A stretch of DNA of 64,000 nucleotides. It comes from a virus. Lineage: Duplodnaviria > Heunggongvirae > Uroviricota > Caudoviricetes. Shown piece by piece: positions 27,001-30,000 of this stretch. Position 1 is the first letter of the stretch, and every line of letters begins with the position of its first letter. Where the stretch lies: the IMG/VR virus record IMGVR_UViG_2880395615_000002; one strand, written 5' to 3'. Made by a program: the position numbers.

Positions 27001-30000
27001 TGCCTCTTCCAGGTCGGCGAACATCCCTTTAAGTGCCTTAGTTACTGAAAGTGCGCGGGCCCGGGTGAACACCAGTTCATCAAACAGCACCATGTCGGAC
27101 GCATCATCCATGAGGTTATCTGCCTCAAGATACTTCGCATATCCACGGTGTCTTACGGCGTAGGTGTTTCGCTGAGAAAAAGCGTTTGAAGGTGGTAAAA
27201 GTCGGGAACCACGAATCCGTTTCGTTTCTGCCGAATTTGCGCAGTTTTTTTCAGAGTTTTTTGCGCATTTTTCATCGCCGGAACCCGCGTCATTGCAGGG
27301 TTCTTCATCTGAGATGTCATGATCGATTTCATGATCGGTTTTATGATCAATTTCATGATCGATTTTGCCCATTTTTATACGGGTTCTGGCGGTGTTGTAA
27401 TTAATCTTTTTCTTCCGGCACCAGTCCAGTAATGTTATTCCCGTTTCGGCATGTTCGCGTCGGAATGCCTGCTCCAGCTTTTTCCAGTCCAGCTTTGCCA
27501 TGTCACGTTCTGACGTCCTGTGTTAAAAACTGATGCATAATGACCGCTGTGATTTTTCAGATTTCACACAGCAGCACCATATTTGATCGATATTTGCACA
27601 ATGCGGTTGTTTTATCCGGTTTCTTCCACCACCGCACCGGACAGGCGGCTTCGCGGGAAATCGCTCCCATCTCGTGAAAAATGAGAAAACCCGGTGTGCA
27701 TCGTTTTTGATTATCCCCGCACACTCGCGCAGAAGGAATTCCCCGTCGGGCTACGGTCATGGTTAATGCGGAAATACAGCGACGATACAGCGCATGATGT
27801 GTCAGGCTTGAATACCTTTATCCGTTAAAAGGGATATCAGTTAAGTTATCCCGTGTAGGGTATAAGCCATTATCAAGCCCACCAGTAGATGGGCTTTGTA
27901 ATGGCTACTTCGCTTTTGCTTCCGCTCGCTTACGCCGGCGCTCTTCTTTCCTCTCGGCTTTTGCCATGTCCATGAATGCCTGCATGATCGAGTTCCGCAT
28001 CATGTAGCTAACAAAGTGATGATTGACACAGCCGTTGAGGCGCAGCTGCTCGCCAAACTCATCCACCGAGGCCAATGCTTCCATCATACCCTTCTCGCCT
28101 TTCATGAACTCTGAGAAGTCGCGCCCCGCTCTGGAGGCGCATTCAATGACACGATCACTCATCCCGGAAGCCCGGGGATCGAAATCTGCAACTGGTTAGC
28201 CAGGGAGTTAATTTCAGCGATCAAACCAGGTTTCGTGTAGCGCCATGCCGCGAGGCCTTGTCCACAGAAGCTCGCCATGTCTTTTTTCTGATCAAACTCA
28301 TGACATTTCATGTTGAGCTGCGCACTTAAGCTGTTCCGATGATGAAGCTCTCCGGTGAAGTAATCATCGAGGACTTTATAGGCTGCATATTTAAATCCGG
28401 GGTTTAGCCATGCTGCGTAATCATAAGCAACGAACTTTCCGCCATAAGTTCCACCGTGCGCACCGCGTTCCGTAAAAACCACAGATTCGTGGTTTTTCTC
28501 CAGCTCAGCCAAGAACTCTTTGGTCTGCTTGTTTCGCAGGTAGTGGTACGGAGATTCAGATTCACTTTTACCACTGGCTTTCCACATATCAGTGAGGCAG
28601 ATCATGCCATCTTCACCGATACGGATTGGTTGATTGAAGAGGGTTAATGATTTCATAGCGTGTACCTACTCTTTGAAATGAACCTTTGCCGCACAGGAAA
28701 CCAGCCCACCGAGGCTCGCCAGCACTAACTGGTATCCTCAAAGGCCCATTCCAAAGGGGCAGGTTCGGTGTAAAAAACATGCGTTGCGGTACGCATTTAT
28801 TGCAAAAAGCCCCGCATCGCGAGGCTCATTAAATGGACTTTGTGATTTGCAAAAAAAATTATTTCAGGCATTGCGTCCTGATGTACTCCTGCAGGTAGTT
28901 AACCTGCGCGGTTATCTTGTCGATTCCACCTCGGAGACGGTAATAATTGAGTTCAGCATCTGCTGTAAGTCCTGGGCTTTCTCCATCGCCCATGCTGCTG
29001 GCTCCGGTCGTTGACTTTGCACAGGTGGCGGAGACTTGCAGGCGCTTACGCCCAGCAGAAACATCAGCACGGAGACTTTCGATAGTCGCATTAGCATCAG
29101 CAAGCTCCTTTGTGTATCTGGCGTCAAGTTCTGCTACATCACGTTGCCGCTTCTGCATATCAGCGATGATGGATGTGGCTTTATCGCGCTGCTCTTTGTA
29201 GGCGATGGCGTTATCACGGTAATGATTCAGCCCCAGACTAAGCGCACCACAGGCTACCAGCAGGACAATAATCACCACACACAGAACACGGTTCATCTCT
29301 CTTTCACCCCACCAGTCCCGATAACGTCAGGACTCGCCAGGCGGTGGAAAAGAAAATGGCAACCAGCATGACTAAAAATGAAATGCCGACGATTACACAG
29401 AGGATCTTCGCCAGCGTTATGAGTTTATCCGATATCATTAGCCACCACTCCATCAATCCGCCTTTGTTATTTTCCCTTTGCCTGTATCAGCCAGGACAAA
29501 ATCAATCAGCAGATTCGCTTCGTTTATCAATGTGCGGATTTTTGATACATGCGCGGATTTAACCTGTTTCCACTCATTCAGCCCGGTAGCAAACACACTG
29601 GCAATGTTTTTATCCCGTTTCATGTCAGCGCAAGCCTGGTTGAGTTCTTCCATCACACTCATTTTACGGGGATTAACGACAAAACCCTTCGTCCAGTATT
29701 CATAGAGAACATCGTCACACTCTTCCTGATACTGGATTACCTTGCCGCGGATTTCGGGTTTTACTTTGTTGGGATTGATGGTTTGTAACCAGCCTGCAAG
29801 TTTTCGAAGCGGCAGGGACACCATATTGCGTCGTTTCCCATCCTCAGCAACCATAACGATTTCCGTTATAGTTGACGCAAAACGCTGTCTTAACTTAGCC
29901 AACTGTGATTGCCAGGCCAGCCCCATCCCCGCAACGACAGGTTTCATGGGAACGTATGGTTCGCCGTTATGGTTCGCCGTTATGGTTAACCACATAAAGA

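Follow-up and report, generated by a model that had tools for sequence, protein, structure and literature searches.

The gene for the small terminase subunit (terS) in a 64,000-nucleotide stretch of the IMG/VR virus record IMGVR_UViG_2880395615_000002 (the whole stretch is hereafter the window) encodes a short run of His and Asp residues by way of four tandem 12-bp units, which raises the question of whether the peptide or the DNA is what has been maintained at this locus. We favor the DNA. In our reading, to which we assign a probability of about 0.6, the array is the cis-acting recognition part of a packaging initiation (pac) site, is recognized by TerS and represents a variant form of the site found in phage P1, set in another terminase family. 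An earlier reading of the window (the sequence-only reading) had drawn attention to the peptide and overlooked that what is conserved is not a peptide but a hexamer of DNA. The His/Asp peptide is most likely a by-product tolerated in a floppy linker, because GAT-CAT reads Asp-His and the predicted linker would be tolerant of it.

The gene that carries the array can be assigned clearly. It codes for 268 amino acids (26695-27501, minus strand), and its product matches the 'terminase small subunit' family phrog_370 with an E-value of 1.3e-124, residues 1-268 lying on profile positions 1-284. It is located upstream of terL, the gene for the 568-residue large terminase subunit (25008-26714, minus strand; PHROG terminase matches, '933W-type headful' class), and shares 20 nucleotides (nt) with the beginning of that gene. 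Together the family match and this overlap bear out the small-terminase assignment of the sequence-only reading. The terS annotated in the Shiga toxin 1 (Stx1)-converting phages AU5Stx1 and AU6Stx1 matches it at 100% identity, and about 190 records of Stx phages, VT2-Sakai and P13374 among them, do so at 99% or more; therefore, the window is a short-tailed, 933W-like Stx-converting prophage. A 315-residue open reading frame (ORF) in the window (34492-35439, minus strand, beginning MKIIIFRVLTFFFVIFSVNVVAKEFTLDFSTAKTYVDSLN) presumably encodes the A subunit of Shiga toxin, in line with a terS that is 100% identical to that of Stx1-converting phages.

The repeat quoted in the sequence-only reading was found as written, and its translation agrees with the His/Asp-rich motif given there, IDHEIDHKTDHEIDHD. 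Tandem Repeats Finder reports a period of 12 with 4.4 copies, 82% matches and a score of 78 at 27313-27365, placing the array among only about ten distinct arrays with a score of at least 50 in the window. The four full units (27316-27363, minus strand) are ATCGATCATGAA, ATTGATCATAAA, ACCGATCATGAA and ATCGATCATGAC on the coding strand. Translated in frame they give IDHE-IDHK-TDHE-IDHD, residues 47-62 of TerS. Each unit holds the hexamer YGATCA, so read on the coding strand; on the plus strand TGATC[AG] is present in all units, at 27320, 27332, 27344 and 27356, with the Dam site GATC at 27321, 27333, 27345 and 27357 (gene nt 177, 165, 153 and 141, respectively). It is this row of hexamers that we propose as the TerS-binding part of the pac site. 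The pattern of four GATCA separated by seven nucleotides (GATCA-N7) has a single occurrence in the window, and none of 100 dinucleotide-preserving shuffles contains it. GATC is under-represented in the window as a whole (172 observed versus about 247 expected), and the array forms its densest GATC cluster.

Two other elements lie close to the array. Further into the gene, two TGCGCA hexamers 24 bp apart (27238-27243 and 27262-27267, minus strand; gene nt 258 and 234) encode ..KCAKNSEKNCAN.. and fall within a second 12-bp repeat at 27236-27272 (Tandem Repeats Finder). In the non-coding DNA, 87 nt ahead of the start codon of terS, is ATCGATCAAATA (27580-27591, minus strand), whose first 8 nt equal those of a repeat unit. 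The GATC at -87 is present in most Stx-type loci and is lacking in the Salmonella loci that have GATCA arrays. It is possible that ATCGATCAAATA is a fifth element of the array, its status being uncertain given the absence from Salmonella.

Does the peptide have a role of its own? In an AlphaFold2 model of TerS, built from a 33-sequence alignment, a three-helix N-terminal domain (helices at residues 6-20, 24-31 and 35-41; predicted local distance difference test (pLDDT) score 75-87) is followed by predicted disorder at residues 47-119 (27145-27363, minus strand; pLDDT about 30, and below 50 for 47-109 and 111-119) and then by long, confident C-terminal helices at residues 130-237. The model, the profile comparison with P1 PacA and the PHROG matches described below all suggest that residues 1-45 (27367-27501, minus strand) are a helix-turn-helix (HTH) domain, with helix 3 (Y35-N-T-A-R-T-R41; 27379-27399, minus strand) as the predicted recognition helix. 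The repeat-encoded peptide makes up the first 16 residues of the predicted disordered linker, which hosts all of the hexamers. The view in the sequence-only reading that the repeat is a linker thus fits the model, in which residues 47-119 (pLDDT <50) lie between two helical domains.

The companion idea, that the repeat is a protein-level His/Asp metal-binding motif, fared less well. Both residues often serve as ligands for metals, and four Asp-His pairs are present. However, neither Pfam, which has no family for TerS or TerL, nor a profile search of the PDB sequences with TerS, which returned nothing relevant, offers a match for such a domain. A Foldseek search of the model against the PDB found only generic coiled coils (HK97 TerS at an E-value of 0.75, not significant). 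The region is also predicted to be disordered at a pLDDT of about 30 and exists in alleles of one to seven units. Moreover, homologs carry SAQK, NAQK, SQIR or SDQK at this position, so metal ligands are not conserved. We therefore regard metal binding as scarcely credible.

As a DNA element, the array recalls the pac site of phage P1, a 161-bp segment within pacA that contains seven TGATCA/G repeats, each with a Dam site, in groups of four and three around a site for integration host factor (IHF) and the cleavage point (PMC10028697). In the P1 record, the GATC sites are located at pacA nt 194-233 and 324-375 and read mostly as Asp followed by His, Gln or Arg, twice in another frame. The window array shares with P1 the hexamer TGATC[AG] with its Dam GATC, the location within a small-terminase gene right after a homologous HTH, and the frame, in which the hexamers are translated as Asp-His/Gln. 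P1 differs in having two clusters (4 + 3) with mapped cleavage sites, an IHF site and a spacing of 7, 12 or 15 bp, whereas the window has a single array of perfect periodicity, accompanied by two TGCGCA hexamers, and is known from sequence alone.

The likeness to P1 extends to the protein. BLASTP aligns the first ~45 residues of TerS and PacA, and hhalign, given a 33-member TerS alignment and a 14-member PacA alignment, pairs TerS 5-45 with PacA 4-44 over 41 columns at a probability of 95.1% and an E-value of 3e-8. The PHROG matches are reciprocal: TerS finds phrog_1711 at 2.9e-5, while PacA, a member of phrog_1711, finds phrog_370 at 1.9e-4. On this evidence, the N-terminal HTH domain of TerS is homologous to the N-terminus of P1 PacA; beyond the N-terminal part, TerS has no similarity to PacA at the sequence level. 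The two proteins also place their sites alike. The window array (gene nt 141-182) lies directly 3' of the HTH, which ends at residue 45 (nt 135), and the left hexamer clusters of PacA homologs are at nt 144-178, 155-187, 153-218 and 168-220. The two TGCGCA hexamers occupy the downstream position that a right-hand cluster would take.

When the collection was scanned for GATCA arrays phased at 12 bp, most of the hits were unrelated repeats, some of them in giant-virus contigs, and only 10 of 120 loci had the pattern beside a TerS/PacA-type HTH; therefore, the pattern alone is not diagnostic. PacA-like genes coding for 425-438 amino acids were seen on IMG/VR contigs of about 92 kb (L213 at gene coordinates 153-240, L134, L196 and L183 at 168-245). 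In these genes the HTH is followed by five or six GATCA exactly 12 bp apart, a more regular arrangement than in P1, encoding xxDH or xxDQ (for example, RDQ-AGDH-NHDH-LSDH-ASDH-QNDH). Across these arrays GATCA is unchanged while the unit's other seven positions have diverged; one more copy lies out of frame. More remote homologs of PacA, found in Xenorhabdus and in a metagenome, retain the two clusters of P1 in two frames. Given these arrays, a periodic Dx[H/Q] peptide right after the HTH is a recurrent translation of P1-type hexamers.

If the hexamer rather than the peptide is conserved, relatives of TerS might be expected to carry hexamers in the same place. We collected terS loci from one-genome-per-species contigs and IMG/VR, which gave 64 distinct genes whose proteins share as little as 37% identity. 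With few exceptions, the hexamer found most often in nt 90-400 of these genes is the palindrome TGCGCA, with five to seven copies at nt ~130-305 distributed over all three reading frames (frames 1, 2, 2, 1, 2, 2 and 0 in locus L005). A Pectobacterium/Brenneria/Symbiopectobacterium group instead has five TTCGCA at nt 161-199 (four in L114). Across more than 60 distinct terS genes, nt ~120-310 contains four to eight copies of a short motif. In 42 distinct loci of the TGCGCA type, the density of the hexamer is 31.5 per kb at nt 120-310 versus 0.27 in flanks of about 3.6 kb, an enrichment of about 117-fold. When synonymous codons were resampled with the protein held fixed (20000 redraws), the resampled mean was 0.3-1.0 copies against the five to seven observed, and 0 of 20000 redraws reached the observed number in most genes. 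For TTCGCA, as for TGCGCA, the resampling was decisive. The use of three frames, the enrichment and the resampling together indicate that the family hexamers are a DNA-level element; therefore, the TGCGCA and TTCGCA clusters are under selection as DNA and not as peptide repeats.

The array in the window fits into this family pattern. Hexamer sites throughout the family have common A-rich flanks (AAAAnTGCGCAAA) and a spacing of mostly 9, 10, 12 or 14 bp, about one helical turn. The Stx phage and the rest of the 933W-type TerS family (phrog_370) have in common the gene, the position within it, the A-rich flanks, the spacing of about one turn and a disordered linker as host of the sites. They differ in that the left part of the TGCGCA cluster is replaced in the Stx phage by four YGATCA units, and in helix residues N36, T40 and R/Q41. 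With four GATCA, two TGCGCA and the helix NTARTRIK, the window conforms to the 933W-type pattern, and as a result of the switch to GATCA its sites can be methylated by Dam. Salmonella prophage relatives with about 60% protein identity have five or three YGATCA whose positions and spacing match exactly, the encoded residue switching between His and Gln while GATCA stays fixed. The TGCGCA pair in the window is what remains of the TGCGCA cluster seen across the family, or else its right-hand portion; in the E. coli phage PhiR12_3 the homologous TGCGCA pair is at gene nt 291 and 303.

What would recognize these hexamers? With two added Salmonella loci, 66 distinct genes could be compared, and the class of the predicted recognition helix (residues 35-41) predicts the class of the motif in all of them, with no exception. 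Helices of the form x[TS]ARR[YH][IL]K go with TGCGCA, NTART[RQ]IK with GATCA (E. coli Stx phages and Salmonella) and SSAKR[YH]ITI with TTCGCA. The Salmonella relatives of the GATCA type carry the NTARTQ helix, and only some six residues set their N-terminal domains apart from those of the Salmonella TGCGCA type, the recognition helix accounting for three.

The helix and the sites also travel as one piece. Compared with PhiR12_3, which is of the TGCGCA type, the DNA of the window is 93-95% identical at nt -62 to 57, 51-68% identical at nt 58-312, where the helix and the arrays lie, and mostly 91-100% identical from nt 373 into terL (one 60-nt block is at 81%). Given this low-identity stretch between high-identity flanks, helix and hexamer array have been swapped together as a cassette of about 300 bp, as one would expect if it sets specificity. 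Chimeric terS alleles were also seen (L064-L070, P0016, P0019 and P0028), in which an Stx-type N-terminus and GATCA array are followed, after ..AETKR, by NSRSGNPHPVARFSD of the other subfamily and not by IRGSRLLPPSNAFSQ. Such alleles show a second recombination joint within the linker.

The number of units varies among isolates, as the sequence-only reading had anticipated. The comparison across related phages that it called for shows the copy number to be polymorphic, with 1, 2, 3, 4, 5 and 7 units seen. Among database proteins, there are alleles with one (P0020), two (P0016), five (P0028) and seven (P0001) units. A three-unit allele, IDHE IDHK TDHD, occurs in a set of Stx2a phages, where matches are 793-795 bp versus 805-807, and was confirmed on LC645410. 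The 5' part of terS is present in 428 of 5426 complete E. coli genomes; 360 of the records match the four-unit form at 99% identity or more and 26 at 95-99%, a band that includes the 289-bp matches of the three-unit form. Among the loci that were fetched, 37 have four units, two have three and one, an IMG/VR contig, has five. The array is therefore polymorphic and strongly centered on four units, with three as a common minority. A phase-variable contingency repeat was considered and rejected, as the 12-bp unit is a multiple of three and every allele seen, from one to seven units, is in frame. In some Stx2a prophage records (L004, that is LC727843.1, at 3130-3230; H93-H100; H154), the terS match ends at gene nt 177, where a three-unit array is directly followed by TGAACCGCCCCGGGTTTCCTGGAGAG..., presumably the end of an element of the IS629/IS3 family. 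Since the rest of terS is missing, these Stx2a prophages probably cannot package.

Such variation could also arise if the array were a neutral, slippage-prone linker of low complexity, the peptide serving to space the DNA-binding domain from the oligomerization domain and GATC being incidental. The predicted disorder of residues 47-119 and the range of one to seven units would suit this explanation, as would a GATCA count that does not significantly exceed the number expected from the peptide sequence. The family comparison speaks against it. In relatives, the homologous stretch is under selection for hexamers at the DNA level, as judged by the frames, the ~117-fold enrichment and the resampling (0 of 20000), and the type of motif co-varies with the recognition helix. 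The arrays of Salmonella and of the PacA-like genes keep GATCA without change, whereas the remaining positions of the unit, and the choice of His or Gln, vary. GATC is depleted elsewhere in the phage and densest here, and the strong predominance of four units is unlike the broad range of lengths expected of a neutral repeat. On balance, we consider a neutral linker unlikely.

Several observations weigh against a TerS-recognized pac array all the same. In the window itself, four GATCA versus a resampled mean of 2.2 is not significant (2475 of 20000 redraws reach it), and the Salmonella GATCA loci behave similarly under codon resampling. Because Asp-His/Gln nearly dictates GATCA, this procedure cannot separate selection on DNA from selection on protein at GATCA loci; therefore, the case for this array is built on its homologous position, the co-variation with the helix and the diverged arrays. 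The co-variation, in turn, comprises three classes and few independent switches. Unlike P1, terS in the window has no second GATC cluster, the next GATC being at -87 and +1086, and there is no match to the IHF consensus WATCAANNNNTTR in 26600-27900. TerL shows no similarity to P1 PacB by BLASTP (best E-value 3.6). Alleles with only one or two units exist. In the literature searched, there was no experimental terminus mapping and no mapped pac site for Stx phages, nor any phage paper tying TGCGCA to a terminase.

The Dam sites in the array raise the further possibility that it regulates terS or terL expression, either through Dam and SeqA or at the level of RNA, by folding of the palindromic units in the mRNA. 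SeqA binds paired hemimethylated GATC sites, and the array offers four GATC at 12-bp spacing in a phage with its own Dam-family methylase. The RNA fold is also somewhat more stable than that of shuffles (z = -2.29; 4 of 200 shuffles as stable). However, any row of palindromic hexamers gives a fold signal of this kind, and an Rfam scan of 26600-27900 found nothing. Most relatives use TGCGCA or TTCGCA, without GATC, at the same place; therefore, a Dam/SeqA function cannot be the conserved one. Finally, the co-variation of hexamer and helix points to TerS as the binding partner. A regulatory role for the array thus appears improbable.

With the array taken as a pac element, a simple scheme for packaging can be proposed. 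The four YGATCA units would form a row of binding sites for the HTH domain of the phage's own TerS, and TerS oligomers would bind the row via their HTH domains. TerL would then be recruited and would cut nearby, starting a headful series. For 933W, the virion DNA appears terminally redundant and generalized transduction has been described (PMC3752737), which fits packaging of the pac-type headful kind. Its TerL belongs to the class 'headful (933W type)', for which the initiation site is not defined (PMC7317114). As the sites lie in the coding region of a predicted disordered linker, any frame would be allowed and the number of units could change without killing the protein. Under this scenario, the repeat number would drift by slippage or unequal recombination, as the linker would accept almost any peptide and any in-frame change of units.

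Methylation may add a layer of control. The window encodes a phage DNA N6-adenine methyltransferase (40747-41274, minus strand; Pfam PF05869 Dam, E-value 8.3e-65), which could methylate the GATC hexamers. By way of the GATC in the sites and this prophage enzyme, packaging might be subject to control by methylation like that in P1, a link that we infer purely by analogy. The methyltransferase gene adjoins a NinB gene. Despite the presence of this enzyme, GATC is depleted in the window.

Taking these ideas further, the TerS family may have a modular recognition code with three hexamer/helix classes, within which Stx phages switched to sites that can be methylated by Dam and hence to methylation-gated packaging, possibly via their own Dam, while one to seven units would tune packaging efficiency and so phage yield and transduction. 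We offer this as a tentative proposal whose chances fall short of even.

Small-terminase HTH targets beside or within terS are familiar from the R sites of lambda cosB, bound by the HTH of gpNu1, from pacL and pacR of SPP1 and from pac of P22. The proposed array is similar to these in that short or repeated TerS recognition sequences direct the start of packaging. It differs in that those phages have other motifs and other terminase families, with no array of GATC hexamers, and lambda makes cohesive ends. How ring-shaped small terminases select the viral genome is still poorly understood. If the array is what we propose, it would mark where packaging starts in the Stx phages, a group of medical importance, and the direction and hotspots of generalized or lateral transduction by these phages would become predictable. 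The three classes would also provide natural matched sets of helix and DNA motif, separated by few residue changes, for the study of TerS-DNA recognition. More generally, a cis-acting site could hide in a coding region by way of a disordered linker, and a peptide repeat that looks meaningful could be a translated DNA signal.

Other repeats in the window were seen as well. Iteron-like repeats at 44117-44194, within a minus-strand ORF at 43603-44541, have a period of 20 with 3.8 copies or of 39 with two, and the consensus TCCCTCGTTTTAAGGGAATC. They resemble the iterons of lambdoid replication origins, with the sites lying within the gene of the likely binding protein. The lambdoid iterons, located in the O gene, are like the terS array in that the target repeats of a DNA-binding protein lie inside its own coding sequence, and unlike it in serving replication, not packaging, and in having longer units (~20 bp). 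A 45-bp unit occurs twice at 16694-16784 (84% matches, Tandem Repeats Finder score 133) in a minus-strand ORF at 16416-18161 in the tail-gene region. The hexanucleotide AAATAG is repeated 10.8 times at 37911-37975 (98% matches, score 123), apparently in intergenic DNA between an ORF ending at 37716 and one starting at 38337.

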